The notes: generated by a model not told the origin, from the letters alone. A stretch of DNA of 64,000 nucleotides from Bacteroidota bacterium (GCA_947468275.1 CANIKO010000002.1:105363-169362); one strand, 5' to 3'. Counted from the stretch's first letter, positions 43,298 to 61,581 are shown. A program made the numbers and translations.

Positions 43298-44626
43298 TTA
43301 AAACGTATGGGCAAAATTAAAGAAGAACTGATGGTCTTCTTTTGAGATGGCATAATCAAAACGCATCACTGTGTTCACATTCCAGACAATTCTAAATCCC
43401 AAACCTTCGGAAATTCGGTAATTATTGAAGTTTAGGTTTCGCGGCATTTTATCCCAAATTCCTCCAGCATCGAAAAACGGAACGGCACCAAACGCTAAAT
43501 GTTGATTTAATATATTGGTTTGTGCAAATCGGTAGCGCAATTCTAAATTATTAAACGTCATAACACGGCTCATAAACCGCGATTGCTTATACCCCCGCAA
43601 GGTGTGAGCCCCGCCGAGTCCCTCAATACTGCCTTCCGAACTCCATTGGTCTTGATATTCAAAAAATGGGGCATTGCCTGCGGTATATCCCCCCGCTGTT
43701 CTAAATGCTAATACTAATTTTTTGGAGTATTTGGGAAATAGATTTTGGTAAATATTAAAGTGGGCAAACGTTTTATTACAGTTATAGGCCGAGCCAAGTT
43801 TTTTAAGAGAAAGTTCATTGGTTAGCTCTGCAAAAACCCCTTGACCGGGGTCAGTTTCCAAATCGCGGGTATCGTATATCAAACCTAGCTGAAGAAAACT
43901 CACTAAACCTTTCCCCACTCCTAATATTTTCTTTTGAGAAAAATCATTGACTAATAATGAATTTCCAGCAAAAGTTTTGATATTAACCTGAGCCATTTCA
44001 AATCCAACCAAGGCTCTAACTTTTCCTTCCATAAACGACCGTTCGCCACTTACATTTAAAATATATTCCTGTTTTATATAGGTATTAAAAAAAATGTTGG
44101 CTCCTTTAAGAGAGTTTTCGTAGTCTGAATATTTAGCATTATTTACTAAGGCTTTTGAACTGTCGCCATTGGGATAGTAGCTCAATCCTCCTAAGGTTTT
44201 TTCGGTATTTCCAAAATACAATAAATTGGGATTACTTTCATAACCCGCTTCCACTCTTAGGCGCCACTTTGTATTTAAAATATATGGCACGTCCAACCTT
44301 AGCATCATTTCACGCTGGCTTCGAGTGGTATTAAATAATGTAAGATCTATTTTGGCCCTATAGGCGGAATAAGCAAAAAACGGGTCGCTGCGTTTGCCGT
44401 TAAAATACACCGACCCTTCAGCCCCATAACCAAAACCATTTACCGGATCAGAACTTAAGTCGGGGATACCTGTAAAATAAGCGCCTTCCTTTTTATTTTT
44501 CAAATCGTCCTCCGACATTTTTTTTTCATTGGCAATGGCAAATGGCAGTTTAGTAGAATCCCCTATTTGAGCATTAGCCGAAACAAAAGTTATTAATACA
44601 GTCAATAAAAGTAAAGAAAATTTCAT
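43298..44626 (-). CDS. Omp85-family (surface antigen D15-type) outer-membrane beta-barrel protein without POTRA repeats
   Basis: Start at MKFSLLLLTVLITFVSANAQ; GGAHTLRGY, VPFFDAGGIW, GLGFRIVWNVNTVMRFDYAI, C-terminal ...NFAHTF. Confidence 0.55.
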   Translation of the reverse strand: MKFSLLLLTVLITFVSANAQIGDSTKLPFAIANEKKMSEDDLKNKKEGAYFTGIPDLSSDPVNGFGYGAEGSVYFNGKRSDPFFAYSAYRAKIDLTLFNTTRSQREMMLRLDVPYILNTKWRLRVEAGYESNPNLLYFGNTEKTLGGLSYYPNGDSSKALVNNAKYSDYENSLKGANIFFNTYIKQEYILNVSGERSFMEGKVRALVGFEMAQVNIKTFAGNSLLVNDFSQKKILGVGKGLVSFLQLGLIYDTRDLETDPGQGVFAELTNELSLKKLGSAYNCNKTFAHFNIYQNLFPKYSKKLVLAFRTAGGYTAGNAPFFEYQDQWSSEGSIEGLGGAHTLRGYKQSRFMSRVMTFNNLELRYRFAQTNILNQHLAFGAVPFFDAGGIWDKMPRNLNFNNYRISEGLGFRIVWNVNTVMRFDYAISKEDHQFFFNFAHTF

Positions 44627-44778
44627 TTGGGCCAGTGGTGCAGAATTTAAAAAACTATTCAAATTATTAGATTTGCAAAAGTAAGCATAAGCCAACGTCC
44701 TCAATTCATGGAATATTTATTTAATATTGAATTCTAATTTCTGTAATATTGAAACTCAAACAAATTTTAAACCCAATT

Positions 44779-44816: not shown

Positions 44817-45341
44817 TTGAATTTTGAAACACTTTATCACGAGCACAAAAAGCTTGTTTATAACCTAGCCTTGCAGTATGTGCAAAACAGTGAAGATGCT
44901 GAAGAAATAACGCAGGATGTATTTGTGGCAATTCATAAGTCTTTGGATTCCTTCAAGGAACAATCCAAACTTAGTACCTGGATTCACAGAATAACCATCA
45001 ATAAATCACTGGATTTTATAAAAAGCAAACAACGCAAAAAAAGGTATGGTAACTTCATTTCTATATTTACCGAAAACACCAATGAGATAAAATATGAGAA
45101 GCCAGAATTTAATCATCCGGGGGTACAACTTGAGAATAAGGAGGCATTGAAACAACTTTTTAAACGCATCAACGAATTATCCGACAATCAAAAAACCGCG
45201 CTTATTTTAAGTAAAATAGAATACAAACCTCAGGCAGAAATTGCGGAAATAATGAACCTGAGCATAAAGGCAGTCGAATCCTTAATTCAAAGAGCCAAAA
45301 CAAGTTTACAGAAAAAAATAAACATCAACGAAGGAAATTGA
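44817..45341 (+). CDS. ECF-type RNA polymerase sigma-70 factor (module 1)
   Basis: Region 2 (...DAEEITQDVFVAIHKSLDSF...KLSTWIHRITINKSLDFIK) and region 4 HTH (LSDNQKTALILSKIEYKPQAEIAEIMNLSIKAVESL). Confidence 0.8.
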   Translation: MNFETLYHEHKKLVYNLALQYVQNSEDAEEITQDVFVAIHKSLDSFKEQSKLSTWIHRITINKSLDFIKSKQRKKRYGNFISIFTENTNEIKYEKPEFNHPGVQLENKEALKQLFKRINELSDNQKTALILSKIEYKPQAEIAEIMNLSIKAVESLIQRAKTSLQKKININEGN

Positions 45342-45373
45342 AAAAATTAGCGTCAAACTAAGAATAACAAACA

Positions 45374-45649
45374 ATGAACAGCAATAACAAAAAATTATCA
45401 TTGGACCTGTTAGGGCAAATACACAAAGTAGATGCACCGCCATTTTTATTTACCCGCATTAAACAAAGGATTGAGAATACTTGCACCTCAAGGTTTTCAT
45501 TAAAGTTAACCTGGTCAATTGGTCTTTCATTTATTTTAGTTTTGGCATTAAATTTTATGGTGATAAACAAACGTATACATCAAATTAGAAGTGATAATAC
45601 TTTGGTTAATACATTCAATTTAATGCCTGATAATTCATTATATAAATGA
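45374..45649 (+). CDS. Small single-pass membrane protein (candidate anti-sigma factor)
   Basis: 91 aa, one TM (WSIGLSFILVLALNFMVI); position directly after the ECF sigma gene. Confidence 0.35.
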   Translation: MNSNNKKLSLDLLGQIHKVDAPPFLFTRIKQRIENTCTSRFSLKLTWSIGLSFILVLALNFMVINKRIHQIRSDNTLVNTFNLMPDNSLYK

Positions 45650-46104
45650 GCAAAGTAAAAATTTTAAGCCTTCTATCTATTGGATTACTCCTTTCCAATT
45701 TACTCTTAATCGGTTTTATTGTTTTACAAAAACCAATGTATGGAGGTCCTAATGGACCAAGAAGTCTAATTCTGGAAAGGCTGAAGTTTGATAAAGGTCA
45801 GATTGAAAAATATGACGTATTAATAGACGGTCATAGAAAGGAAATACAACACACTGAATTGGAAATCAAAGGTTTAAAAAATACACTTTATGAAAGCCTT
45901 GCCCGGGACTCAAATAATCTTTATAAAGACTCCATCATTAATGCCATTGGACAATGTCAGATAAAAATAGAGTCCATTCATTACAAACATTTCCAGGATG
46001 TTAAGAAACTTTGCAATGAAAATCAGCTACCTGCATTCAACGCACTGACAGAGGAGTTGGCCTCTTTGTTTTCAAGACGGCCTCGAACTATAAACCCAAG
46101 ATGA
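45646..46104 (+). CDS. Membrane-anchored periplasmic helical protein (Spy/CpxP-like?)
   Basis: N-terminal TM then helical region (LERLKFDKGQIEKYDVLIDGHRKEI...); parallels the LTXXQ protein of module 2. Confidence 0.3.
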   Translation: MSKVKILSLLSIGLLLSNLLLIGFIVLQKPMYGGPNGPRSLILERLKFDKGQIEKYDVLIDGHRKEIQHTELEIKGLKNTLYESLARDSNNLYKDSIINAIGQCQIKIESIHYKHFQDVKKLCNENQLPAFNALTEELASLFSRRPRTINPR

Positions 46105-46799
46105 AGAAGCGCTTAGCCTTCTTTCCAATAGTTTTATCATTTTACAGTAATCAACTTCTTGCTCAAAACTTCCGAATACTATCCTTGAATTTTAAACCGA
46201 TGTTCGGCAATTCCGTTCTGCAATTGAATGACTCCGTTTATAAACTGAATAAGAACGACAGCATTCAATTTGAAACCTTGAAATTTTATGTTTCCGCAAT
46301 AGAGTTTTGGAATAATTCAGCACCGGTTTGGATAGAACCAAACAGCTTTCATTTAATGGATGCATCGGACAGCAACACCTTAAAATTGGCCTTTAAAGTT
46401 CCTTCCGATATGATATACGCTGAGATAAAATTTAAACTCGGTATCGACAGTTTAACCAATGTTTCAGGTGCCATAGGGGGCGATTTAGACCCCACAAAAG
46501 GCATGTATTGGACATGGCAAAGTGGGTACGTAAATTTTAAACTGGAAGGGAAAAGCAATCTTTGTCGATCGAGAAAACATGAGTTTCAATTTCATTTGGG
46601 AGGTTATACTCATCCTTACAACGCATTACAAACCATCTCGCTGTTGACTTCCAACCTCCAAGATGTGAGCATTAAATTTGACCTAAAAACGTTTTTAAGC
46701 GATGTGGACTTAGAGAATAAGCCTTCTGTTATGTCACCCAATAAGGATGCATTAATATTATCTAATCAGCTGGGTAAACTCTTTAAAATTAAAGAATGA
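46101..46799 (+). CDS. Periplasmic MbnP-like protein (partner of a di-haem peroxidase)
   Basis: 232 aa, signal peptide; Trp-rich segment GMYWTWQSGYVNFKLEG; 4-nt overlap with the downstream di-haem peroxidase (MbnP/MbnH-type arrangement). Confidence 0.4.
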   Translation: MKKRLAFFPIVLSFYSNQLLAQNFRILSLNFKPMFGNSVLQLNDSVYKLNKNDSIQFETLKFYVSAIEFWNNSAPVWIEPNSFHLMDASDSNTLKLAFKVPSDMIYAEIKFKLGIDSLTNVSGAIGGDLDPTKGMYWTWQSGYVNFKLEGKSNLCRSRKHEFQFHLGGYTHPYNALQTISLLTSNLQDVSIKFDLKTFLSDVDLENKPSVMSPNKDALILSNQLGKLFKIKE

Positions 46800-47833
46800 A
46801 TTGGAGGAGGAATGTTTCGGTTTGCTTATTATTTATATGCGTCTCAGCATTTGTTGCCAGCAAAGATGGACTTTTTAATATTCCTCTAAATTGGCCGAAG
46901 CCGAACTACAATTTTTCAAAAAACCCTTTAACAAAAGACAAAATAGATTTAGGAAGAGCCCTGTTTTATGACCCGATTTTATCCCAAAACAATACCATTT
47001 CTTGTTCAAGTTGCCATTCCCAATTTACCTCATTTGCTCATGTCGATCATGCTTTAAGCCATGGAATTTATGACCGAATTGGAACACGAAATGCACCGGT
47101 GCTGATTAATTTGGCATGGAACAAAACCTTTATGTGGGATGGCGCCATAAACCATTTGGATATGCAAGCACTCGCGCCGATAAGCCATCCCGATGAGATG
47201 GGCGAAAGCATTGAACACGTAATTTATAAACTCAATCAATCTAAAATATATCATCATCTTTTTTTTAAAGCATTTGGCGACAGCATTGCATCAGGTGAAC
47301 ACCTGTTAAAAGCAATTTCTCAATTTATGCTAACTCTGGTGAGTGCCAATTCAAAATACGACAGTATTAAACAAAAGAAATCTGTCCTTACTTTGAAAGA
47401 AAATAATGGTTACCAGTTATTTAAAAAAAACTGTTCGTCCTGCCATACTGAACCTTTGTTTACCAATCAGAAATTTGAAAATAACGGGTTGCCTGTTGAT
47501 TTGGAATTAAAAGATTTTGGAAGAATGAAAGTTACCCAAAACCCAATTGACTCTTTAAAATTCAAGGTACCTACCCTTCGCAATATTGAATTCTCATATC
47601 CCTACATGCACGACGGCCGATTTAAAAATTTAAATGCGGTATTGGATCATTACGTCAGGGGCATTGTAAAAAGTAAAACTTTGGCTTTGCAATTGGAACA
47701 ACCCATTGTATTATCGGCCAATGAAAAGGTAGATTTGATAAGCTTTTTGCTCACCTTAAGTGATAAAAAGTTCTTATTTAATCCCGAATTCGGCTATCCA
47801 AAAAATCTTCTTATATCTTTACCGAAGGATTGA
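46796..47833 (+). CDS. Di-haem cytochrome c peroxidase (MauG/MbnH-like)
   Basis: Two CxxCH haem motifs (CSSCHSQF, CSSCHTEP) with CCP-family spacing; 345 aa. Confidence 0.8.
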   Translation: MNWRRNVSVCLLFICVSAFVASKDGLFNIPLNWPKPNYNFSKNPLTKDKIDLGRALFYDPILSQNNTISCSSCHSQFTSFAHVDHALSHGIYDRIGTRNAPVLINLAWNKTFMWDGAINHLDMQALAPISHPDEMGESIEHVIYKLNQSKIYHHLFFKAFGDSIASGEHLLKAISQFMLTLVSANSKYDSIKQKKSVLTLKENNGYQLFKKNCSSCHTEPLFTNQKFENNGLPVDLELKDFGRMKVTQNPIDSLKFKVPTLRNIEFSYPYMHDGRFKNLNAVLDHYVRGIVKSKTLALQLEQPIVLSANEKVDLISFLLTLSDKKFLFNPEFGYPKNLLISLPKD

Positions 47834-47873
47834 AATTTTAAAATCGTCAAACCATAAGATCAAAAAAAAATAT

Positions 47874-49619
47874 ATGCATAAAACAAAGCACCCGATTTTT
47901 CTTCTGTTTTTTTCTAGTCTTCTTATTTTATTATCAAGCAGTCAAAGCAAGGCACAATACAACACCCTATGGATACCCGACACGCTTTCGGGGACCAATT
48001 TTAACCTGAATATCAAAGATACCTTCGCGCAAATTGTGAGCAAGGGAAACCAAACTATTACCGGAGGTATAAACGGTAAATTCTGGGGTCCGACCTTGTT
48101 CATTAAAAAAGGAGATGTGGTGCATATGAATGTTAAAAATAATCTGAATGATTCCACAACACTTCACTGGCATGGTATGCACCTGCCTGCAGTAATGGAT
48201 GGAGGTCCGCACCAGATCATTCCACCCGGCACTCTTTGGCAACCTTACTGGAAAGTGACGAACAACGCTGCAACCTATTGGTACCATCCCCATTTACACG
48301 AAATGACCATGGATCAGATCACCAAGGGATTAGGAGGATTGATTATTGTGAGAGACAGCATAGAATCTGCTTTGGCCCTGCCAAGAAAGTACGGTGTGGA
48401 CGATATTCCATTGGTATTAACGGATCGTGACTTTAACACTTCCAATCAATTTGTGGCGGTGCCTTATGGCGACAGTATGATGGTAAACGGAACGCTTCGT
48501 CCTGAGTTCTCTATTCCCGCACAGGTGGTGAGATTCAGAATTCTGAATGCCGCTATTGAACGTTCCTATAATCTTGGTTTCAGCGATAACAGGGCCTTTC
48601 TTATCATAACTTCCGACGGTGGACTATTAAATGCTCCGGTTTCTGTGACTAGATATTTATTGCATGCAGGCGAACGCATTGAAATTCTGGTCAATTGCGT
48701 TTCACAATCGGGCACTTCACTGGATTTAAAAGCCTACAATTCCACCTTGGGCAATTTTGTTGCCGGAGGCGAAGCCTTTGTCAATGGCCCCTTTGCCAAT
48801 GCATTAGGCAAAAAAGATTTTAATATTCTGCATTTAAAAATAGGTGCGATAACCGGTTCGCCAATTACAAACATACCAAGCACCCTGACCAATAATAAAA
48901 CCCTTAATGCGGCTGATGCAGTTGTTACAAGAAAAGTGACCATCAGTGACAGCGCAGGTGTTAAAGTCCCTACGATTCTCGGTCCTAATGCATTTATAAT
49001 TAACCATAAACTATTTAAGTTGGATAGAAACGAATATAATGTCCCATTGAACAATACCGAAATTTGGGAAATTACAAGTACATCCGTTTTCGGGCATCCT
49101 TTTCACATTCACGATGTGGAGTTTAATATTTTAACTGTGAACGGTGTAGCTCCGGCAGCAGCCCAAGCAGGATGGAAAGACGTGGTTTTTGTTCCTGGGA
49201 AAACAGGAACAACCCCTTCCGTTGTGAAATTCATCGCAAAATTTGATGACTATGCGGATGCCTCTCACCCGTTTATGTTCCATTGTCATATTTCATTGCA
49301 TGAAGACGAAGGTATGATGGGTCAGTTTTTAGTTACTAATTCCTCCACAGGAGTAAAAGCGCTTCAAAAATCAGAACATGCATTTATTGTTTACCCAAAT
49401 CCGGCGAACAATAAATTATATTTCCAGTTTAATAATCAAGAAATGAAAGCATATTATGTCAGGATTATTAATGAATTAGGTAAAACTATTATAATGCTCC
49501 CAAGTCCTGAGTTGGAAAAAGGAATTGATGTCAGCAGCATTGCGGCAGGTATTTATTTGATTCAGTTAACCGAATTTGGAACCAAAATATTAATAACACA
49601 AAAGTTTATTAAAGAATGA
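47874..49619 (+). CDS. Multicopper oxidase with T9SS C-terminal sorting domain
   Basis: HWHGMHLP, WYHPHLHEMT, HPFHIHDVEF, HCHISLHEDEGMMGQF give the four Cu-binding His motifs; CTD tail IVYPNPANNKLYFQF...GIYLIQL. Confidence 0.8.
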   Translation: MHKTKHPIFLLFFSSLLILLSSSQSKAQYNTLWIPDTLSGTNFNLNIKDTFAQIVSKGNQTITGGINGKFWGPTLFIKKGDVVHMNVKNNLNDSTTLHWHGMHLPAVMDGGPHQIIPPGTLWQPYWKVTNNAATYWYHPHLHEMTMDQITKGLGGLIIVRDSIESALALPRKYGVDDIPLVLTDRDFNTSNQFVAVPYGDSMMVNGTLRPEFSIPAQVVRFRILNAAIERSYNLGFSDNRAFLIITSDGGLLNAPVSVTRYLLHAGERIEILVNCVSQSGTSLDLKAYNSTLGNFVAGGEAFVNGPFANALGKKDFNILHLKIGAITGSPITNIPSTLTNNKTLNAADAVVTRKVTISDSAGVKVPTILGPNAFIINHKLFKLDRNEYNVPLNNTEIWEITSTSVFGHPFHIHDVEFNILTVNGVAPAAAQAGWKDVVFVPGKTGTTPSVVKFIAKFDDYADASHPFMFHCHISLHEDEGMMGQFLVTNSSTGVKALQKSEHAFIVYPNPANNKLYFQFNNQEMKAYYVRIINELGKTIIMLPSPELEKGIDVSSIAAGIYLIQLTEFGTKILITQKFIKE

Positions 49620-51199
49620 GAAAATTCCTAATAGGTTTTGCTTCAGTAATATGTTCCTTAAATTCCTATTCGCAGAGAAATATAGTCCTTATTATCGCTG
49701 ATGATTTAGGTACAGATTATTGTGGTTTTTATGAAGACCACCAAGACACTGTCGACATACCTAATATTAGGGCTTTGCTCAGAAAGGGTGTGCGCTTCAG
49801 CAATGCAATGTCCAATCCGGTTTGTTCTGCCACCCGTGCCGGCATTTTAACAGGGCGATATAGTTTCAGGACTGGAGTTGGTGGAATTGTTGGAGGAGCC
49901 GGCGGTTCCAATCAGTTGGATACTTCCGAAATTACAATACCGCGATTATTAAAAAAGTTTAATCCAATTATTGCAAAGGCTGATATTGGGAAATGGCATC
50001 TTCATCAGGCAATGCCAATTTCCAACCTTTTAAATCCCAATAGATTGGGATACGACCATTACGAAGGTCCTTTTATTGGTCAGTTGCCAAGCTATACCAA
50101 CTGGACAAAATATACTAATGGGGTGGCAAGCACAATAACAACCTATGCCACCACAGAAAATGTGAACAATGCAGTTACCTGGATTAAAATGCAAAATTCA
50201 AAACAATTTTTTCTTTGGTTGGCTTTTAATGCGCCTCATGCCCCTTATCATTTGCCACCTGCAGGTTTACATACCTACACTAATTTGAGTGGTACACCAT
50301 TAGATATTTCTAAAAATCCAAAATCCTATTTTAAAGCCATGCTTCAGGCGCTTGACCATGAGATTGGTCGTTTTTATGATTCATTAAAAAAAATGAATCG
50401 CTTTGACAGCACCGATTTTATTTTTATCGGTGATAATGGAAATACTACCCAAACTGCGCAAATTGCAAATACTGACAAAGCCAAAGGCACAGTTTACCAA
50501 TATGGAGTGCATGTTCCTTTTATTATTTCTGGGCCTTCAGTAGTTAATGGAGGCAGAAAAAGTGATGCTCTAGTTAATACTGCTGATATTTTCGCAACCG
50601 TACTTGATTTATTTGGAGACAAGTCATGGCCGACGCTAATACCATCAAACAAGCCGGTGGACAGCAAAAGTATTTTTCCCATTTTAAAAAACACGAGCAC
50701 AGAAATACGTCCTTGGCAATTTTGTGAAAATTTTAAATTAACACCGGATTCAACAGATGGAAAAGCCATGCGAAACAAGGAATTTAAACTCATCAAATTG
50801 GATTATGGTAAAGAAGAATTCTATAACTTAAATACTGACCCCGATGAATTAAATGATTTGTTAAAAGGAAATTTATCTTCAATAGAACAGACCAATTTCA
50901 ATTATTTGTGCAGTGAAATGACAAAATTGATTGGCAAGGGATCCTTCTGTAACAGTTCATCCGACATAAAAAATATTGTAGATCAGAAATCAGATATTTA
51001 TCCTAATCCTTTCCATGCCTATATTCACAGTGAATCCTTTACGGATCAGGACATTTATGAACTTACCGATTGTATGGGACAAATCAGATTCACCGGAAAA
51101 AACATAGAACTTCAAAATTTCTCAAACCTTCCAACAGGTGTTTATTTCCTTAAAATTTCAAACAATAAAAATCAAACCATAAAATTATTAAAAGAATAA
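49616..51199 (+). CDS. Sulfatase-family (alkaline phosphatase superfamily) enzyme with T9SS CTD; variant CSATR active-site motif
   Basis: IIADDLGTDYCGF...SNPVCSATRAGILTGRY...GKWHL...; C-terminal DIYPNPFHAYIHS...GVYFLKISN. Confidence 0.75.
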   Translation: MRKFLIGFASVICSLNSYSQRNIVLIIADDLGTDYCGFYEDHQDTVDIPNIRALLRKGVRFSNAMSNPVCSATRAGILTGRYSFRTGVGGIVGGAGGSNQLDTSEITIPRLLKKFNPIIAKADIGKWHLHQAMPISNLLNPNRLGYDHYEGPFIGQLPSYTNWTKYTNGVASTITTYATTENVNNAVTWIKMQNSKQFFLWLAFNAPHAPYHLPPAGLHTYTNLSGTPLDISKNPKSYFKAMLQALDHEIGRFYDSLKKMNRFDSTDFIFIGDNGNTTQTAQIANTDKAKGTVYQYGVHVPFIISGPSVVNGGRKSDALVNTADIFATVLDLFGDKSWPTLIPSNKPVDSKSIFPILKNTSTEIRPWQFCENFKLTPDSTDGKAMRNKEFKLIKLDYGKEEFYNLNTDPDELNDLLKGNLSSIEQTNFNYLCSEMTKLIGKGSFCNSSSDIKNIVDQKSDIYPNPFHAYIHSESFTDQDIYELTDCMGQIRFTGKNIELQNFSNLPTGVYFLKISNNKNQTIKLLKE

Positions 51200-51200
51200 C

Positions 51201-52562
51201 ATGTACAATTTAAAGAGAAAATTAATGGTGCTCAGCTTGCTTTTTACAAGCATTGCCTCAAATGCACAAACCAATCCTGCCATTCTGAATTGGCTTCAAA
51301 ACACTACAAACATAACAGGTAGACATTATGTAAAAGGCAATTCCACCGCCATTACCGATGCAACTTTAGCCAATGTTCAAAATGTTAAATACTCTGCAGA
51401 TTGGGTTTACATAAGCACCCAGGGGATTCCTGCCTATGTTACGGGACCATTTTTGGACAATAACCCATCATTGGCAACCGCCCAAAATGCAATTTTTAAA
51501 ATCTCCTTAAAACCTGTTAAAAACCCGGGAGCATTTACTGCCACCACAGGAGGAAATATTGGTATTTTTATCAATGGTGTAGCCTTGTTTGATTACCGCG
51601 ACGGAGTTTCCTGGCAAAACAGTTCAAGTTCTTTAAAAGGCGGTCCTTCAGGCGGAATTGGGGATGGTGTTTGGAACCGCGATGCCGTGGTTGGTGAAAA
51701 GTTAGGTTTTGATTGTTCCAAAGGACACCCAGCCATGGGCAATTATCATCACCACCAAAATCCAAGTGCCTTTAAGCTGGACCTTACTGTGATATCCACT
51801 GTGTGTAATTTATACGATGCTGACGGATTGTATGTCATCGATAGTACAAAACATTCTCCATTATTGGGTTTTGCTTATGATGGATTTCCGATTTATGGAG
51901 CCTATGCCTACAAAAATGCAGATGGTACCGGTGGAATTACCCGCATGAAATCGAGTTATACTTTGAGAAATATTACCAAACGCATTACGTACTATACCGG
52001 AACCAATGTAACTGCAGGTCCTGATGTTGATGCCACTTATAAATTGGGTTATTTCAGAGAGGATTACCAATACAATACCACCTCTGCTGCCACTCCCGAT
52101 TATTTGGATGAACATAACGGACGTTTTTGCAAAACCCCGGAATATCCGGATGGTATTTATTGTTATTACGCCACCGTAGATAAAAATTGGAACTCTGCTT
52201 ACCCATATATAGTTGGTCCTACTTTTTATGGAACAAAAACTGCCGCTAAAGTAACAAGCATTGCCGAAACGGTTCAAACCTTCGCTCCACCGGTGGCTAT
52301 TCAGAAACTTGAGAACAATCAAATCTCTGTTTTTCCAAATCCGAGCAGCGATTTAATTGCCGTGCAACTGAACGGTTTATCGAGAGAAAATACAACCGTT
52401 TCCCTGTATGATTTAAACGGGCGAATGATTCAAAATACTGTCATAAATCAGGGAAGTACCATTGTTTATTTCGATACCAAAACTATATATGCTGGAGAAT
52501 ATATAGTTAAAATTTCTAACGATAAGGGTTCAATTACCAAAAAGGTTGAAGTTTATAAATAA
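51201..52562 (+). CDS. YHYH-family secreted protein with T9SS CTD (paralog of 58704..60326)
   Basis: NGVALFDY, NYHHHQNP, shared motifs with the downstream YHYH protein; CTD ISVFPNPSSDLIAVQL... Confidence 0.5.
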   Translation: MYNLKRKLMVLSLLFTSIASNAQTNPAILNWLQNTTNITGRHYVKGNSTAITDATLANVQNVKYSADWVYISTQGIPAYVTGPFLDNNPSLATAQNAIFKISLKPVKNPGAFTATTGGNIGIFINGVALFDYRDGVSWQNSSSSLKGGPSGGIGDGVWNRDAVVGEKLGFDCSKGHPAMGNYHHHQNPSAFKLDLTVISTVCNLYDADGLYVIDSTKHSPLLGFAYDGFPIYGAYAYKNADGTGGITRMKSSYTLRNITKRITYYTGTNVTAGPDVDATYKLGYFREDYQYNTTSAATPDYLDEHNGRFCKTPEYPDGIYCYYATVDKNWNSAYPYIVGPTFYGTKTAAKVTSIAETVQTFAPPVAIQKLENNQISVFPNPSSDLIAVQLNGLSRENTTVSLYDLNGRMIQNTVINQGSTIVYFDTKTIYAGEYIVKISNDKGSITKKVEVYK

Positions 52563-52587
52563 TTGAATGTAATATTGATAATCAACG

Positions 52588-53070
52588 ATGAATAAAACGG
52601 CTATTAGGATAATGGTTTTTGCTATAAGCCTTTTATTTAACAATGTTGCTTTTTCTCAAAATATTTCTACAATTAGATTTGAGACTCTCCAGCAGCGGAT
52701 TACCTCAAATCCTGATACCGTTTATGTCGTTAATTTCTTTGCATCGTGGTGTGCACCCTGCATTCAAGAAATTCCTGATTTTTTGAAGTATGCTGAAGAT
52801 AATAAGAATGAGAAAGTAAGGGTGATTTTTGTGAGTCTGGATTTTAAAAAAAACATGTATGAGAGTTTGTTACCTCTGATTCAGAAATTAAATATCAATC
52901 AAACGGTTTATTTATTGGATGAACCGGACGCCAATCAATGGATAGACAAAATTGACAATACCTGGAGTGGTGTAATTCCGGCCACCCTGATACTTCATAA
53001 ATCTTCTGATTATAGAAAGTTTATACCGGCCCCCCTTACTTATAGTTTATTAAAGAAGTTTACAAAATGA
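52588..53070 (+). CDS. TlpA/ResA-like thiol-disulfide oxidoreductase
   Basis: FFASWCAPCIQEIP (WCxPC) in a thioredoxin fold; signal peptide. Confidence 0.7.
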   Translation: MNKTAIRIMVFAISLLFNNVAFSQNISTIRFETLQQRITSNPDTVYVVNFFASWCAPCIQEIPDFLKYAEDNKNEKVRVIFVSLDFKKNMYESLLPLIQKLNINQTVYLLDEPDANQWIDKIDNTWSGVIPATLILHKSSDYRKFIPAPLTYSLLKKFTK

Positions 53071-53678
53071 AACGCACCATTTTTAAAATTCAAAGCGGAC
53101 TGATTATGGTCATCTTTGGTTTCACCCTTATTAATTTTACCATCTTGGAACATGATAATGTCAAAGATTTTAAATTAAAAAATGTGGATGGAAGCTATGT
53201 TTCATTAAGCGATTATCCCGATGCCAAAGGGTTCATTATTGTTTTTACCTGCAATCACTGCCCTTTCGCTAAGCTATATCCTGCCAGATTAAACGAGTTA
53301 AATTTAAAATATAAAAAACTGGGGATACCGCTTCTGGCAATCAGCTCTACAGACACCATCGCCTATGAAGAAGATACCTATGTCAAAATGGTTGAAAAAT
53401 CAAAGAACGAATCTTTTAACTTCCCTTATTTATATGATGGGCAGCAAACGGTTGCTAAAAATTTCAAGGCACAAAAAACACCCCATGCCTATGTGATCTG
53501 GAAAGAAAAAGGGCAATGGACAATCAAATACCAGGGGGCTATTGACGATAATGGTGCTGAACCAGAAAAAGTTGAGAACAATTATATCGCACTAGCTATC
53601 GATCAACTCCTAAATAATAAGGAAGTTAAAAGAAAAGAAACTAAATCCATTGGCTGCCAGATACGCTTTAGAAAATAA
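53067..53678 (+). CDS. Thioredoxin-fold (AhpC/TSA/redoxin-like) protein
   Basis: FTCNHCPFAKLY (CxxC); translationally coupled to the preceding gene. Confidence 0.55.
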   Translation: MKRTIFKIQSGLIMVIFGFTLINFTILEHDNVKDFKLKNVDGSYVSLSDYPDAKGFIIVFTCNHCPFAKLYPARLNELNLKYKKLGIPLLAISSTDTIAYEEDTYVKMVEKSKNESFNFPYLYDGQQTVAKNFKAQKTPHAYVIWKEKGQWTIKYQGAIDDNGAEPEKVENNYIALAIDQLLNNKEVKRKETKSIGCQIRFRK

Positions 53679-55282: not shown

Positions 55283-56950
55283 ATGATGCCTAAAAACAAA
55301 GCAGCCAAACCATTAATTCTTAGACTGTTCGCAATTTCACTTTTTGTCTTCACCCATGCGTTTCTTTTTGCGCAAACCAAATCCATTATTTTGGGCAGGC
55401 CTACAGATACATCTATTACGGCAAGTATTCTGTTTGATCAAAATGTAAATTATTATCTTGAATATGGCACCCAATCCGGAACTTTTTTAAAAACCACGGC
55501 AGTCTTTGCAAATAAAGCAAACACGCCCGATGAAATAGTCCTGCAAAATCTTTCACCAAATACAAAATATTTTTATAGGATTCAGTATCATCTTTTACCT
55601 ATAAGTTTTTATACTCCAACCCCTGAATACTCTTTCAATACCCAGCGGGCTAAAGGTTCTTCATTTACCTTCACCATTGAGGCTGATGAGCATTTATATG
55701 ACAAGAAAGGGGTAAAAAGCATTTATCAGTTATGTTTAAATAACCAGGCCAAGGACAAACCTGATTTTATGTTGTCTTTGGGGGATATTTTTGGAGATGA
55801 CCACTATCCATTCACCATTACTTCCGCTCAGTTGGATGCCTTGCATAAAGATTACCGGCCATTTTTGGGAAGCATCTGCCACTCTGTTCCGTTTTATGTT
55901 TGTCTCGGAAACCATGAAGGAGAAAATGATTATTACCTTGCGAAAACACCCCCTAACAATTTAGCGGTATGGGGCACGCAGTGGAGAAAGTTCTATTACC
56001 CCAATCCCTACCCAAACGGCTTTTACAGCGGAAATACAGATAATGAACCCTTCGGTATAGGCAATCCTGAAAATTACTATGCCTGGACCTGGGGCGATGC
56101 GTTGTTTGTTGTTCTGGATGTTTACCGGGACGAATGTGACACTTCCGATAAACCCTTAAATTGGGATTGGTCTTTGGGTAAACCACAATATGACTGGCTT
56201 AAAGCAACGCTGGAAGGCAGCACTTCTAAATACAAATTTGTTTTTGCCCATCATATTCGCGGACAGGGCAGAGGCGGTATTACCAATGCCAAATTATATG
56301 AATGGGGAGGTTACGACGGGAAAAACGGAACAACATATAATTTTCCAAACAAACGTCCGGGCTGGGCCAAGCCGATTCACCAGTTGTTTAAAGACAATGG
56401 TGTAAACATATTTTTCCAGGGCCATGACCATTTATTTGCTCATGAAACGATGGACGGTATTACCTACCAGGAAGTCCCCATGCCCAGTGACTCAACTTAC
56501 ATGATTGGCAAATTGGCCAATGCCAATGCTTATGTGTCGGACACTTTAGAGGGGACAGGCCATATCAGGGTGACCGTAAACCCATCTTGTATTAAGGTGG
56601 ATTTTGTTCGGGCCTATTTACCCAAGGATACACTGTCGGGCGTGCATAAAAATGGAGAAGTTGCTTTTTCATACACCATTGGAAACTGCGGTTCATCCGG
56701 AGTTATGCAGCAAACCATAGATGATTTCGTAAAAGTATTTCCAAATCCGGCCAGCAATAAAATTAGCGTTCGGTTTAAAGAAGACCCCAAAAATTATACA
56801 TTAAAACTCACCAATATCCTTGGTGAAACAGTGTTGGAAACCCGAACAAATGAACTTGATGTCAGTGGTTTACAAACCGGGGTTTACTACCTCAATATTG
56901 AGACAGGCAACAATCATTTTGTTAAAAAAGTAATCGTAAATCAAAACTAA
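55283..56950 (+). CDS. Calcineurin-like metallophosphoesterase (purple-acid-phosphatase-like) with T9SS CTD
   Basis: GDIFGDD, CLGNHEG, GHDH metal-binding motifs; CTD KVFPNPASNKISVRF...GVYYLNIE. Confidence 0.7.
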   Translation: MMPKNKAAKPLILRLFAISLFVFTHAFLFAQTKSIILGRPTDTSITASILFDQNVNYYLEYGTQSGTFLKTTAVFANKANTPDEIVLQNLSPNTKYFYRIQYHLLPISFYTPTPEYSFNTQRAKGSSFTFTIEADEHLYDKKGVKSIYQLCLNNQAKDKPDFMLSLGDIFGDDHYPFTITSAQLDALHKDYRPFLGSICHSVPFYVCLGNHEGENDYYLAKTPPNNLAVWGTQWRKFYYPNPYPNGFYSGNTDNEPFGIGNPENYYAWTWGDALFVVLDVYRDECDTSDKPLNWDWSLGKPQYDWLKATLEGSTSKYKFVFAHHIRGQGRGGITNAKLYEWGGYDGKNGTTYNFPNKRPGWAKPIHQLFKDNGVNIFFQGHDHLFAHETMDGITYQEVPMPSDSTYMIGKLANANAYVSDTLEGTGHIRVTVNPSCIKVDFVRAYLPKDTLSGVHKNGEVAFSYTIGNCGSSGVMQQTIDDFVKVFPNPASNKISVRFKEDPKNYTLKLTNILGETVLETRTNELDVSGLQTGVYYLNIETGNNHFVKKVIVNQN

Positions 56951-56959
56951 ATCTCATCG

Positions 56960-58675
56960 ATGAAACAAACGATCATATTTGTCATATTTCTTTTTATCCT
57001 GATGAATGCATCCAATGCCCAAACCCTGAGGCACAAAGAGATTTTAGGAAGACCCACGGATAATAGCATCACAATTCAGGCATTTTTTGATAATCCGGCA
57101 GAAGTATGTGTCCAATATGGCACAACATCCGGAAACTATCCCAATCAAACAGCCTGGCAAACCTTTGCAGCAGGAGAACCTTCTGAAATTTTAATAAGCG
57201 GCCTGCAGCAGGATATGAAATATTATTACAGAATGTGTTACCGTCAGCCGGGAACCATCCCATTTGCCTCAAGACCTGAATACACGTTTCATACGGCCCG
57301 TCCTCAAGGTAAGAGTTTTTCATTTGTGGTGCAGGCTGATCCTCATTTGGATGAGCAAAGTGATACGGCTGTTTATCGCCGTTGCCTGAGAAATCAATTA
57401 GAAGATGCTCCCGATTTTATGATAGATCTGGGTGATTTTTTAATGACTGATAAACTGAGAACCCCTGCCAAAGTAGTTCCCAGAGATACCGTGACTTACC
57501 GCTGTCACTTGTTGCGTTCCTATTACGAAACATCCTGTCATTCGGTGCCTTTGTTCATCGCCTTGGGAAATCACGAGGGAGAATCGGGTTGGAATCTGAA
57601 CGGAACACCCAACAATATTGCAGTTTGGGGCACCAATGATCGCAAAAAATATTTTACCAATCCCATTACCAACAAATTTTATTCAGGGGATACCACCAAT
57701 TATGCTTTTGTCGGTCAACGTGAAGCCTATTATTCCTGGCAATGGGGTGATGCTTTGTTTATCGTTATTGACCCATATTGGTACACCAAACCCAAACCTG
57801 ATTCTTTAAACGGATGGCGATGGACCTTAGGTAAAACACAATACGATTGGTTAAGAAAGACCCTTGAGGGAAGCAACGCGAAGTTCAAATTTGTATTCTC
57901 TCATCAAATTGTTGGAGGTGATCCTGACGGACGCGGTGGGGTGGAATATGCCAACCGCTATGAGTGGGGAGGTGATAACCTGGATGGAACCAAAGGATTT
58001 TCAAGCAATCGCCCGGGTTGGTACAAACCCATCAAAGATTTATTGGAAGAAAACCGGGTGACCATATTCTTTCACGGGCATGATCATTTTTTTGGCAAAC
58101 AGGAAAAAAACTGCCTCGTTTATCAGGAAACCCCTCAACCCAGTCATCCTAATTTTACCAGTGTGACCTATGCAAAAGATTATGGATATTTTGAGGGGCA
58201 AATACTGCCAAATTCGGGTTATATAAGAGTTACCGTCGGTCCTGATGGCGTAAAAACAGAATATGTCAGGGTTTATTTACCTGCCAATGAGACGGCCAAC
58301 CGACACAACAAGGATGTTTCAGCGACTTATTTTATAGGGGCTAAAAATTGTTATGATTCTATAACAGGCGGTATTCCCATGATCTGGAATAGCAGTTATG
58401 CCGATGAGCTCATTTACCCAAATCCATTCAATCAGGAAACAAAAATTGAATTTTCGCTCAACAATCCGGAACGCATTAACCTTTATGTAATGGATAATCA
58501 GGGCAGGAAAGTGAAACAACTTATTGCCGGCAACGAAGTTCAAAATGGGAAATTTCAAATCATTTGGGACGGAAAAGATTCATCCGGAAATTTATTGCCC
58601 AACGGCACTTATTATTATGCCTTAAAAGGCCAGAACAGTGAAGAAAAAACCGGGAAAATTATTCTGCAGCGCTAA
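56960..58675 (+). CDS. Calcineurin-like metallophosphoesterase paralog with T9SS CTD
   Basis: LGDFLMTD, ALGNHEG, HGHDH; CTD LIYPNPFNQETKIEF...GTYYYALKG. Confidence 0.7.
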   Translation: MKQTIIFVIFLFILMNASNAQTLRHKEILGRPTDNSITIQAFFDNPAEVCVQYGTTSGNYPNQTAWQTFAAGEPSEILISGLQQDMKYYYRMCYRQPGTIPFASRPEYTFHTARPQGKSFSFVVQADPHLDEQSDTAVYRRCLRNQLEDAPDFMIDLGDFLMTDKLRTPAKVVPRDTVTYRCHLLRSYYETSCHSVPLFIALGNHEGESGWNLNGTPNNIAVWGTNDRKKYFTNPITNKFYSGDTTNYAFVGQREAYYSWQWGDALFIVIDPYWYTKPKPDSLNGWRWTLGKTQYDWLRKTLEGSNAKFKFVFSHQIVGGDPDGRGGVEYANRYEWGGDNLDGTKGFSSNRPGWYKPIKDLLEENRVTIFFHGHDHFFGKQEKNCLVYQETPQPSHPNFTSVTYAKDYGYFEGQILPNSGYIRVTVGPDGVKTEYVRVYLPANETANRHNKDVSATYFIGAKNCYDSITGGIPMIWNSSYADELIYPNPFNQETKIEFSLNNPERINLYVMDNQGRKVKQLIAGNEVQNGKFQIIWDGKDSSGNLLPNGTYYYALKGQNSEEKTGKIILQR

Positions 58676-58703
58676 ATAATTATTGATAAAATTTGAAATG
58701 CCC

Positions 58704-60326
58704 ATGAAAAAAATAAATAGATACAGTTACCTACTCATGATTTGCCTGATGGGCAATTTATTGTTTGCCCATGACAGCCATTATGACCATTCCAGTCAAA
58801 AACACTGGACGCTTGCGAGGGAGTCAAAGACTTTCGAAGGTTCTTTTTTTATGTATAAAAATGGGAATGTTTACATTGAAACCGATCATGACAAAATCAT
58901 TAACTATCCTTTAACAGCTTTCACAAAAGAAGATCAGGCGTTTGTTTTGGCTAAATATGCCCGGATTGAAAAATTAAACCATCAAATAGCAGAACGGGCA
59001 AAACCAAAGGTTTCTGTTCTAAGCATATTTGATATTAAGTTCTTCGTATTTTTAGCTCTCCTGATATTATCCGGATTTTATATTTTTAAGATTGCACAGA
59101 AACAAAAGATTCAATATTTAGCTCCGGTTTTTTTGATTGCGATTGTACTGTCACTTTACAGTTTCACCACCAAAGTTATTGGTGTTTTAGGAACAACCAC
59201 TGACCCTGCATTTGTTAATTCAGCATTTGCACCCTTCAAACCCAATGTCAATACCCGTTGGGACAATACCTATTTTTATGTTGAGTCCCTTGGCATTCCC
59301 GAACATTTAATGATGTCAGGAATAACAGGATGGCAGCAACAGTTCCCCATTCCTCAGTGTTATATTGGTTCCAATGCCTGGAGTATTCCCTTAAATCCCG
59401 TGAAAGCCGCCACGCCGGTCCCCGTAAATGCCCAGCATTTTTTGCGCGGTGCGGTTGCAATTGCTGCCAATGGGGTAGCCATCTTCAATCCTTACACCAA
59501 TACCGGTGTAGATGCTCTGTTGGATGGTCAGCTTGATAATTACGGAGGCCACTGTGGCCGTGCAGATGATTACCATTATCACATTGCGCCTTTATTTTTA
59601 GATGATAAAACTGCTGATATTTTGCCCATTGCCTTTGCTCTGGATGGATACGCCATTTACGGCAGTCTTGAGCCGGATGGTTCAGCCATGAAAACACTCG
59701 ACGCCAATCACGGGCACGATGGCAGTAACGGGGTTTACCATTATCACGGAACTCCGACTGCCCCTTATATGATTGGTAACATGGTGGGTCAGGTTACCGA
59801 AGATGCTACCCTTCAAATAATTCCGCAGGCTGCAGCCAAAGGGGTTCGCCCTGCCGGAACACCCTTGAAAGGTGCCGTAATTACAAGTTGTATCCCAAAC
59901 AAAGCCGGAAATGGCTACAAACTGACCTACACGCTTTCAGGTGTAACAGATTCAGTGGTTTACAGCTGGACACCTGCCGGATTGTTTACCTTTAATTATT
60001 ATGTTTCAGGGGTAAAAACAACGACCAATTATACGGGTACTGCCATTTGTAAGGTTCCGACGGCGTCAATCAATTCGATATTTCAGGAAAATGAAATTTC
60101 AGTATATCCGAATCCGGTTAAGGAAGTTTTAAATTTAAAGTTGTCCAAACAGATTAAGGAAAATGATGTACAGGAAATTTCTGTATATAACCTAAATGGC
60201 GAATTGGTTTATCATGCCGATAAATATATCTCTGGCATTGATGTCAGGAATTTTTCGAGGGGCATTTATCTGGTTAAAATTCAGGTATCTAACCGGCAGT
60301 TTATTAAAAAAATAAGCATTCAATAA
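58704..60326 (+). CDS. YHYH-family secreted protein with T9SS CTD
   Basis: Start at MKKINRYSYLLMICLMG...; DYHYHIAPLFL and VYHYHGTPTAPY; CTD ISVYPNPVKEVLNLKL...GIYLVKIQV. Confidence 0.5.
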   Translation: MKKINRYSYLLMICLMGNLLFAHDSHYDHSSQKHWTLARESKTFEGSFFMYKNGNVYIETDHDKIINYPLTAFTKEDQAFVLAKYARIEKLNHQIAERAKPKVSVLSIFDIKFFVFLALLILSGFYIFKIAQKQKIQYLAPVFLIAIVLSLYSFTTKVIGVLGTTTDPAFVNSAFAPFKPNVNTRWDNTYFYVESLGIPEHLMMSGITGWQQQFPIPQCYIGSNAWSIPLNPVKAATPVPVNAQHFLRGAVAIAANGVAIFNPYTNTGVDALLDGQLDNYGGHCGRADDYHYHIAPLFLDDKTADILPIAFALDGYAIYGSLEPDGSAMKTLDANHGHDGSNGVYHYHGTPTAPYMIGNMVGQVTEDATLQIIPQAAAKGVRPAGTPLKGAVITSCIPNKAGNGYKLTYTLSGVTDSVVYSWTPAGLFTFNYYVSGVKTTTNYTGTAICKVPTASINSIFQENEISVYPNPVKEVLNLKLSKQIKENDVQEISVYNLNGELVYHADKYISGIDVRNFSRGIYLVKIQVSNRQFIKKISIQ

Positions 60327-60335
60327 TCAAACAAA

Positions 60336-61568
60336 ATGCAAAAAATCGTTTACCTGATAGCGCTGTTTATTTCAATGAATTCTTTTGCTCAGTACAAAGG
60401 AACATGCTCGGTTACCCAGGGACCTGCAAGTACAACAGTTACAAATCTGTATTCATGCAGCGGAGGCCGGGTTTCAGGTGTTGGGACCATAAAAGCAACA
60501 GACAATTTAAACTGGACTGTTCCGGCACTTGTTAATTTTACAAACACTGCTTTCCCGTTTTCATCCGACCTGAACAACGCGTGTAATGGAAACAATTATG
60601 CCAATGTTGCAGCCGCTCTGGCAGCCTTAAACGGGACCGATATTGTTACAGTTGACGCCGACGGAGAACTGATAACAGCTTATATTTTCGCCGATAATTA
60701 TTTTGAAATGTACATCAACGGGACCGCAGTTGGAAAAGACAAGGTTCCTTTCACCCAGTTCAACTCGAGTATTATTCGTTTTAAAGTAAAAAGACCATTT
60801 ACCATCGCCATGCTTCTGGTGGATTGGGAAGAAAATCTGGGACTCGGTTCGGAATTAAACGGCGGTTTTGCTTACCATCCAGGCGACGGGGGTATGGTAG
60901 CTGTTTTTAAAGATGCCTCCAATAAAATAATTGCAACCACTGGCAATGAATGGAAAGCCCAGACTTTTTACACGTCGCCCATAACCGATTTGACCTGTCC
61001 ATCCGAATCCGGTACTTTGCGATTGTCTACCAATTGCAGCACCCAAAATTCGAACGATGGCAGCAAATATTACGGACTTCACTGGAGTCGGCCTGCAAAC
61101 TGGATGAATGCCGCTTTTGACGATTCATCCTGGCCATCGGCTTCCACCTTTACCAATGCTACCATCGGGGTTGACAACAAACCGGCTTATACCAATTTCA
61201 CAGCCATCTTTGATGAAGCTTCTGATGATGCCGAATTTATATGGAGCTCCAATGTCATTTTAGATAATGAGGTGATTGTGAGGCACACAGTGGCAGGTAT
61301 CGCTTCTATTTTTAACAATAACTTACCGGATTTGAAAATTCGGATTTATCCTAACCCGGCAAAAAATAGTTTCCAAATTCAAGGAATAGAAGGTTTGTTA
61401 AAGGATAACAACTTCAAAATCAGAATTTTTAATGCATTAGGTGAAAGAGTTTATGAAGCGGATGATTATAATGAAAAAATAGAACTTCCTTTGATACCCT
61501 CCGGAGTTTACTTTATTAAAATCATGAGCGGCAGTGATCAGGTAATACAGAAATTAATTATCGAATAA
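60336..61568 (+). CDS. Secreted hypothetical protein with T9SS CTD
   Basis: Signal peptide ...SFAQ; CTD IRIYPNPAKNSFQIQG...GVYFIKIMSG. Confidence 0.45.
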   Translation: MQKIVYLIALFISMNSFAQYKGTCSVTQGPASTTVTNLYSCSGGRVSGVGTIKATDNLNWTVPALVNFTNTAFPFSSDLNNACNGNNYANVAAALAALNGTDIVTVDADGELITAYIFADNYFEMYINGTAVGKDKVPFTQFNSSIIRFKVKRPFTIAMLLVDWEENLGLGSELNGGFAYHPGDGGMVAVFKDASNKIIATTGNEWKAQTFYTSPITDLTCPSESGTLRLSTNCSTQNSNDGSKYYGLHWSRPANWMNAAFDDSSWPSASTFTNATIGVDNKPAYTNFTAIFDEASDDAEFIWSSNVILDNEVIVRHTVAGIASIFNNNLPDLKIRIYPNPAKNSFQIQGIEGLLKDNNFKIRIFNALGERVYEADDYNEKIELPLIPSGVYFIKIMSGSDQVIQKLIIE

Positions 61569-61581
61569 TCGGAATGAAATC

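Follow-up and report, generated by a model that had tools for sequence, protein, structure and literature searches.

A predicted copper-handling gene cluster with an MbnP/MbnH-type pair and genes for surface-directed proteins in a Bacteroidota bacterium

An MbnP/MbnH-type pair within a ten-gene cluster

The window analyzed here is a 64,000-nucleotide stretch of DNA from a freshwater Bacteroidota bacterium (GCA_947468275.1, CANIKO010000002.1:105363-169362); all positions are counted from its first nucleotide. On the + strand, positions 44817-53678 hold ten co-directional genes with intergenic gaps of at most 40 nucleotides and an ATGA overlap at five junctions. The genes encode, in order, an extracytoplasmic function (ECF) sigma factor, a 91-aa putative anti-sigma factor, a 152-aa protein, an MbnP-family protein, its di-heme partner MbnH, a multicopper oxidase, a sulfatase, a YHYH-domain protein, and two thioredoxin-like proteins containing CAPC and CNHC motifs, respectively (Table 1). 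The oxidase, the sulfatase, and the YHYH protein carry sorting domains of the type IX secretion system (T9SS). A relative with 78% identity in MbnP has its ten genes arranged identically. The initial annotation had described an MbnP/MbnH-like pair and an exported multicopper oxidase downstream of an ECF module. The pair was confirmed, as was its position: the sigma factor, anti-sigma, and Spy-like genes lie directly upstream. The bounds given for the unit, 46101-49619, proved too short in that they leave out the YHYH gene, the most conserved partner.

The 232-aa protein is a member of the MbnP family. It has a Sec-type signal peptide and, in the profile search proposed in the initial annotation, it matched PF20243 (MbnP) with 148.9 bits (cut-off 27, E 2e-43) over 186 of the 189 profile positions. 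An AlphaFold model of the protein (predicted local distance difference test score, pLDDT, 84; predicted template modeling (TM) score, pTM, 0.80) was compared to the PDB using Foldseek. At E ≤ 0.001, the only matches were the six chains of 7L6G, the MbnP of Methylosinus trichosporium (E 1e-8, probability 1.0, TM-score 0.61-0.68); the next match had an E value of 0.2. Sequence identity between the two proteins was 14% in the Foldseek alignment and 18% using hhalign. 7L6G was not recovered when the PDB was searched with the sequence of the 232-aa protein, with its profile of 25 sequences, or with a divergent paralog from locus L061. Residues were mapped via the canonical MbnP that Methylocystis plasmids encode next to MbnH within methanobactin operons; with this MbnP, the 7L6G sequence was recovered and then aligned using hhalign.

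In this alignment, LDPTKGMYWTWQSGY lies opposite LD-ISGMAWNWQAGR of 7L6G and FQFHLGG lies opposite WMVHVGS. More specifically, W137-T-W139 is opposite the W-N-W of 7L6G, with W137 corresponding to the first Trp of the WxW motif. In the characterized MbnP, this first Trp is converted to kynurenine-174 and is needed for copper binding (PMC11951088). Homologs were sought in one genome for each species; of the 487 or more loci obtained, the best 80 were examined. In all 80 of these species-level homologs, M135, W137, W139, and H165 are invariant. Because no other Met or His is conserved in both MbnP subfamilies in the alignment with 7L6G, we name M135 and H165 as predicted copper ligands alongside a kynurenine derived from W137. 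Candidates for the copper-site residues that the initial annotation expected are present.

The protein belongs to a large MbnP subfamily, for which the searches returned 2,448 or more protein clusters. In L061 (positions 1-1482) and at the start of L071, another, divergent MbnP/MbnH pair is encoded on the opposite strand, ~9 kb upstream of the main pair. The divergent MbnP of L061 is a lipoprotein-like protein of 259 aa that is 29% identical and retains the M-x-W-x-W and H-x-G motifs.

The mbnP-type gene overlaps the di-heme gene through the ATGA at 46796-46799, and the gene of the 152-aa protein overlaps that of MbnP in the same manner at 46101-46104. As initially described, the 345-aa protein contains two CxxCH motifs. 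Both read CSSCH (residues 70 and 213) and are invariant in 78 of 78 orthologs. The inter-heme Trp, W114, lies in FMWDG, opposite QFWDG of 1IQC. In canonical bacterial cytochrome c peroxidases, the E heme is ligated by His and Met, whereas in MauG-type enzymes it is ligated by His and Tyr (PMC11892367). Tyr286 of the 345-aa protein, likewise invariant in all 78 orthologs, is opposite Tyr294 of MauG and the corresponding Tyr of MbnH (6E1C). The enzyme is assigned to the MauG/MbnH type because Tyr286 occupies the E-heme ligand position at which classical peroxidases have Met.

Raw pairwise scores against the PDB would favor a canonical peroxidase, as they were led by 1IQC from N. europaea (143.7 bits), ahead of MbnH 6E1C (126.1 bits) and MauG (~69 bits). 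However, the alignments to canonical peroxidases break off at residues 283-284, immediately short of the ligand position. Only 6E1C aligned over the full length, to residue 335, indicating an MbnH-like C-terminal region, and the top NCBIfam match was the MbnH model. The canonical peroxidase reading, which the initial annotation had named as a way in which its assignment could fail, was rejected on the evidence of Tyr286. In the plasmid records behind matches H4, H7-H10, H15, and H20 (e.g., NZ_CP092970.1, 96997-98157), the distributed annotation gives di-heme MbnH homologs encoded beside MbnP the name 'methanobactin export MATE transporter MbnM', an apparent systematic naming error.

Table 1. 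Genes of the cluster at 44817-53678 and of the region downstream of it
Feature	Position	Strand	Basis of assignment
ECF sigma factor, 174 aa, first cluster gene	44817-45341	+	Sigma70_r2, r4_2, TIGR02937
Putative anti-sigma factor, 91 aa, one hydrophobic segment (presumably membrane-spanning)	45374-45649	+	Role suggested by position and size
Membrane-anchored periplasmic Spy/CpxP/Metal_resist-like protein, 152 aa, candidate signal sensor	45646-46104	+	Homology to 165-aa paralog
Periplasmic member of the MbnP family, 232 aa; M135/W137/H165 as predicted Cu(I) site	46101-46799	+	PF20243, Foldseek, hhalign
MbnH/MauG-type di-heme enzyme, 345 aa; CSSCH 70 and 213, W114, Y286	46796-47833	+	PF03150, E 3e-51
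CueO-like three-domain multicopper oxidase, 581 aa, with a C-terminal T9SS type A sorting domain	47874-49619	+	Cu-oxidase_3, Cu-oxidase, Cu-oxidase_2, Por_Secre_tail
Cys-type sulfatase with predicted T9SS export, 527 aa, formylglycine motif CSATR	49616-51199	+	PF00884, Por_Secre_tail
T9SS-exported YHYH-domain protein, 453 aa	51201-52562	+	PF14240, E 4e-56; Por_Secre_tail
Thioredoxin-like protein, 160 aa, CAPC	52588-53070	+	Thioredoxin_8, AhpC-TSA, TlpA/ResA-like matches
AhpC/TSA-Redoxin-like protein, 203 aa, CNHC	53067-53678	+	PF00578, PF08534
Second, paralogous ECF module: sigma factor 190 aa, putative anti-sigma factor 115 aa, Metal_resist/LTXXQ protein 165 aa	53789-55202	+	
Five more T9SS cargo genes	55283-62802	+	Two purple-acid-phosphatase-like metallophosphoesterases, YHYH2 (58683-60326), 410-aa T9SS protein, Lcl_C

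Conservation of the pair and its neighbors

The occurrence of neighboring genes was evaluated by searching the 80 loci with the proteins of the window using tblastn. Two loci, L044 and L033, belong to the cultivable relatives Nemorincola caseinilytica JCM 32105 and Parasediminibacterium sp. JCM 36343. The examined loci are from Bacteroidota and Ignavibacteriota, the closest match being a freshwater metagenome-assembled genome deposited as Chitinophaga pinensis. MbnH is encoded immediately after MbnP at 79 of the 80 loci; in the exception, L060, the contig ends ~500 bases past the MbnP gene. The pairing is thus no chance adjacency.

A gene for a T9SS-tagged YHYH protein directly adjoins the pair at 45 of the 58 loci with enough flanking sequence, after MbnH in 36 and before MbnP in 9. 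This observation spans 51201-52562 of the window and loci L003-L006, L010-L086, and L089-L091. Further, MbnP, MbnH, and YHYH are consecutive in four metagenome contigs that were looked up independently. In the reciprocal look-up, three of four YHYH orthologs had the pair directly upstream. In the fourth locus, L092, which has no pair, the gene immediately upstream encodes a T9SS oxidase; next come redoxin and T9SS phosphoesterase genes that resemble those of the window. YHYH is also the most conserved of the three proteins, with ~70% identity among orthologs as compared to ~65% for MbnH and ~50% for MbnP. Based on the neighbor counts, the conserved core consists of MbnP, MbnH, and YHYH. At L009 (10699-12044), the MbnH (244 aa) and YHYH (204 aa) proteins are both truncated and encoded back-to-back, suggesting either a deletion that fused the two genes or an assembly error.

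Other neighbors are less regular. An ECF sigma factor homolog or module lies directly upstream of MbnP at 23 of 64 loci; in L020, L027, and L070, it is of the type found in the second ECF module of the window. The oxidase is a recurrent but lineage-specific addition, not a conserved partner. It occurs within 10 kb of the pair in L016, L020, L023, L031, L032, L037, L041, L042, L046, L052, L055, L067, L081, and L084. The gene for the CNHC redoxin (trx2) adjoins the oxidase gene in L016, L020, L023, L037, L046, L081, and L092, and the redoxin usually comes right after the oxidase elsewhere. In L004, genes for an HMA P-type ATPase, a HupE/UreJ protein, and an oxidase lie near the pair. The YHYH2, 410-aa T9SS, and Lcl_C genes occur inside the MbnP/MbnH cluster in L004 and L023. 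Few of the related loci have a sulfatase.

Comparison of the cluster as a whole with its closest relatives revealed uneven similarity. With respect to L007, MbnP is 98-99% identical, but the sigma factor is 82%, the oxidase 86%, and the first thioredoxin-like protein (trx1) 79% identical. The YHYH protein is nearer to that of L001 (96%) than to that of L007 (92%), and the second ECF module and the phosphoesterases are missing from L007 and present in L008. This mosaic similarity to L007 and to L001/L008 suggests either recombination between related populations or a chimeric assembly.

Regulatory and surface-directed proteins

Over its full length, the 152-aa protein shows homology to the protein of 165 aa encoded in the second ECF module (23% identity, E 2e-7). 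This paralog matches PF13801 (Metal_resist), LTXXQ and, in the PDB, Spy. The 152-aa protein itself has no Pfam match and is tied to PF13801 solely through the paralog. His63, His115, and Cys123 are invariant in 28 orthologs of the 152-aa protein and would fit a metal-binding sensor site. The 91-aa putative anti-sigma factor likewise has no Pfam match; the position of its gene between those of the sigma factor and the Spy-like protein is kept in relatives. The layout of the trio presumably resembles that of the metal-sensing ECF system CnrH/CnrY/CnrX of Cupriavidus metallidurans, a likeness at the level of layout. The two share an ECF sigma factor, a small single-pass anti-sigma factor, and a membrane-anchored helical periplasmic protein of a Pfam family named for heavy-metal resistance. 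They differ in gene order, and the PDB search returned Spy rather than CnrX.

The YHYH protein matched PF14240 with 190.6 bits (cut-off 25). Using TIGR04183 (cut-off 23), it scored 47.7 bits and the sulfatase 37.9 bits, and both are predicted to be T9SS type A cargo with a Sec signal. The name-giving motif reads YHHH in the YHYH protein of the window and is invariant in 25 sequences. The invariant residues are His42, His176, His183-His185, His218, Asp171, Asp303, Cys172, Cys202, and Cys310. In one comparative study, the domain is called 'enigmatic', and a Zn hydrolase that has three His residues and one Asp is predicted (PMC7824862). When the PDB was searched by sequence and by profile, only the T9SS tail of the protein was matched and no solved relative emerged. 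A match to REP34 (E 0.58) was lost when the profile was used and was rejected as chance. AlphaFold, using an alignment of 25 sequences of ~70% identity, did not produce a confident model (pLDDT 44). A literature search, which did not take in the key MbnP/MbnH papers, returned no paper joining YHYH to MbnP or MbnH.

The start of the oxidase gene was re-evaluated. Read mechanically, the open reading frame (ORF) opens at GTG 47760 (47760-49619). Translation from ATG 47874 yields a protein of 581 aa with a signal peptide (MHKTKHPIFLLFFSSLLILLSSSQSKAQ), a length that is also annotated for the orthologs, among them a database protein with 100% identity. The true start is almost certainly ATG 47874, such that the oxidase gene does not overlap that of MbnH; the two are separated by a 40-nucleotide gap. 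Numbered from this start, the protein contains all four types of copper motif (HWH98, HPH138, HPFHIH408, and HCHISLHEDEGM470), in agreement with the initial annotation, as well as the T9SS sorting domain (Por_Secre_tail, PF18962, E 1e-10; TIGR04183, 39.8 bits).

The best family match of the oxidase was CueO of E. coli, with which it shares an architecture of three cupredoxin domains, the four copper motifs, and Met as the axial ligand of the type 1 copper. The match to the CueO model NF008205, 375 bits in two stretches, is under the cut-off of 525. Moreover, the oxidase has a Sec signal and no twin-arginine signal, unlike CueO. As it is routed via Sec and not via twin-arginine translocation, it must gain copper after crossing the inner membrane. 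While CueO is periplasmic, the T9SS C-terminal domain predicts that the oxidase of the window is surface-attached or secreted. The initial annotation considered this routing to be remarkable in itself. We rejected this: the sorting domain is present in 120 of the 120 closest database homologs, and such oxidases are common in Bacteroidota. A literature search on T9SS oxidases returned nothing relevant.

With respect to the third T9SS protein, the CSATR formylglycine motif of the sulfatase calls for a maturation enzyme, and none is encoded within the cluster. The combination of Sec signal and T9SS domain predicts that the oxidase, the YHYH protein, and the sulfatase traverse the periplasm before they reach the surface.

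Outside of the cluster, a gene for an Omp85/DUF5982 outer-membrane protein (43298-44704, - strand) diverges from the ECF sigma factor gene. In the relative with the 78%-identical MbnP, this position is occupied by a gene for a 1782-aa CHU_C (T9SS) protein. An ORF of 769 aa (20759-23068, - strand) combines ThiF-like and nitroreductase-like regions, an architecture known from peptide-modifying enzymes; its neighbors are a 7TMR-DISM histidine kinase gene and unannotated ORFs. A Pfam scan of ten of the larger ORFs between 17.9 and 39.3 kb revealed no copper genes.

Copper handling and its alternatives

On balance, we consider it somewhat probable that 44817-53678 is a single ten-gene operon whose products handle copper between the periplasm and the bacterial surface. 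The sigma/anti-sigma/Spy-like trio probably turns the operon on upon a periplasmic signal, probably a metal. MbnH would then use H2O2 to oxidize Trp137 of the MbnP-like protein to kynurenine. Together with Met135 and His165, the kynurenine would complete a high-affinity Cu(I) site, and MbnP could then buffer periplasmic Cu(I) or pass it on. The formation of such a high-affinity Cu(I) site has been demonstrated experimentally for the MbnP of Methylosinus (PMC11951088). The operon would further provide the CueO-like oxidase, the predicted YHYH metalloprotein, the sulfatase, and the two thioredoxin-like proteins. The physiology that we favor is copper-stress homeostasis, in which MbnP would capture Cu(I), the oxidase would act in surface oxidation, and the thioredoxin-like proteins would repair thiols. 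It is favored based on the metal-resistance type of the sensor module, the CueO-like oxidase, the thioredoxin-like proteins, and the copper and other metal genes near the pair elsewhere. Within this scheme, the kynurenine/Cu(I)-site step is the best supported, by homology. The physiological role is less certain. What the analysis shows directly is the membership of the proteins in their families, the conservation of the site residues, and the linkage of the genes; kynurenine formation, copper binding, the inducing signal, and the direction, copper removal or supply, are inferred.

The closest characterized system is the MbnP/MbnH pair of Methylosinus trichosporium OB3b (7L6G and 6E1C; the 'metallo-mystery pair' of TIGR04052 and TIGR04039). 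As in that system, the genes of the window overlap in the order MbnP then MbnH. The MbnP proteins share the fold, the GM-x-W-x-WQ-x-G motif, and the His of H-x-G, and the MbnH proteins share the inter-heme Trp, the MbnH-like C-terminal region and, from the alignment, a Tyr-ligated E heme. Unlike the Methylosinus pair, that of the window is accompanied by neither a methanobactin operon nor a TonB-dependent transporter. Instead, its subfamily lies beside genes for T9SS cargo, comprising YHYH and sometimes the oxidase, and in many cases downstream of a module for an ECF sigma factor. MauG, which functions in tryptophan tryptophylquinone biosynthesis in Paracoccus denitrificans, is of the same di-heme superfamily, has the Tyr ligand and the inter-heme Trp, and oxidizes Trp residues of its partner. 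The 345-aa enzyme scored lower against MauG than against MbnH (~69 versus 126 bits in the PDB; 183 bits for TIGR03791, likewise under its cut-off, versus 214 for the MbnH family). Moreover, the window has no methylamine dehydrogenase genes, and the partner of the enzyme is an MbnP. Finally, MopE/SACCP and CorA/CorB of methanotrophs combine a kynurenine copper protein with a di-heme peroxidase and act in cell-surface or secreted copper handling. However, the MopE/CorA fold differs from that of MbnP (PMC11951088). In addition, the only export tag of the MbnP of the window is its Sec signal; it is the neighbors that are surface-directed.

A number of observations weigh against the copper-handling operon or against too close an analogy to the characterized pair. 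The 232-aa protein scored 43.1 bits against the equivalog model TIGR04052 ('MbnP_like_WxW', cut-off 140) and the 345-aa protein scored 214 bits against TIGR04039 (MbnH, cut-off 362.85), its best NCBIfam match. As both proteins are under their equivalog cut-offs, the pair represents a divergent subfamily. The 232-aa protein is ~90 residues shorter than the characterized MbnP. It also lacks the four-Cys motif, having a single Cys (C155) where canonical sequences hold several; indeed, 7L6G is named 'metallo-mystery pair system four-Cys motif protein' in the PDB. With respect to the operon, no copper exporter or importer is encoded within it. Scans for promoters and terminators, which do not cover Bacteroidota promoters, performed no better than on shuffled sequence. 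The oxidase lacks the Met-rich insert of CueO (≤3 Met per 40-residue window) and is found beside the pair in only a minority of genomes, directly following MbnH at 3 of 69 loci. Finally, the kynurenine proteins of methanotrophs function in copper acquisition and are copper-repressed, which points the other way with respect to direction (PMC3621798). Thus, of the three-gene copper set proposed initially, the MbnP/MbnH pair is supported, and the oxidase is better described as specific to certain lineages.

A possible, though less probable, alternative is that the pair is a maturation route for T9SS cargo in the periplasm, in which MbnP would load the oxidase and YHYH with Cu(I) or MbnH would modify YHYH. 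The gene counts are consistent with this: the YHYH gene is the conserved neighbor in both directions of the look-up, its product is better conserved than either MbnP or MbnH, and in L092, where there is no pair, it adjoins the gene of a T9SS oxidase. The requirement of the Sec-routed oxidase for copper past the inner membrane and the acquisition role of the analogous methanotroph proteins (PMC3621798) point in the same direction. In contrast, approximately one-fifth of the loci have the pair and no YHYH gene nearby, and the YHYH protein did not yield a confident structure. Moreover, the only published prediction for YHYH is of a Zn hydrolase (PMC7824862). We propose only tentatively that MbnP, MbnH, and the T9SS YHYH protein form a three-part functional unit in Bacteroidota and Ignavibacteriota, YHYH being a copper-dependent or MbnH-modified surface protein. 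Within such a unit, YHYH might receive Cu(I) from kynurenine-MbnP before export or might capture copper at the surface, a suggestion we hold equally loosely.

It is rather unlikely that the oxidase, together with the sulfatase, was merely inserted as a passenger between MbnH and YHYH in this lineage and shares transcription with the pair but no function. The rarity of the oxidase beside MbnH argues for this, as do its presence within 10 kb of the pair in just 4 of 30 fully flanked loci, the direct succession of MbnH and YHYH in most genomes, and the fact that the oxidase has a conserved partner of its own, the CNHC redoxin. Nevertheless, oxidases recur near the pair at at least 14 independent loci in varied order, which would seem to exceed what is expected of an unrelated gene. 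The oxidase is also linked to YHYH in L092, and it makes functional sense for a copper enzyme to be encoded next to a protein that binds copper. Finally, it is highly improbable that the pair consists of an ordinary bacterial cytochrome c peroxidase that scavenges H2O2 (the 345-aa protein) and an unrelated periplasmic protein (the 232-aa protein), given the invariant Tyr286, the full-length alignment to 6E1C, and a partner that is an MbnP by both profile and fold.

The proposed copper-handling operon described here extends a known family. MbnP/MbnH pairs are known far beyond methanobactin operons (PMC3621798), some Bacteroidota homologs are already named 'MbnP family protein' by NCBI, and the pair itself is not new. 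What is new is the short subfamily without the four-Cys motif, its probable control by an ECF module with a Spy-like protein and, above all, its conserved coupling to a T9SS YHYH protein. MbnP/MbnH is one of very few known systems that build a metal site from a protein-derived kynurenine. The MbnP of the window is part of a large and unstudied subfamily that is shorter, lacks the disulfide motif, and has invariant Met, Trp, Trp, and His residues. If the link to YHYH reflects co-regulation only, the system would amount to one more ordinary member of a copper-handling family that is already known. The linkage to YHYH, and occasionally to a T9SS oxidase, nevertheless provides a concrete, testable hypothesis for what an MbnP serves. 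It also offers, for the first time, a lead from genome context toward what the YHYH domain does; this domain is present in diatoms and jumbo phages as well. Should MbnP, MbnH, and YHYH indeed form a functional unit, it would provide the first function for PF14240 and the first client for an MbnP.

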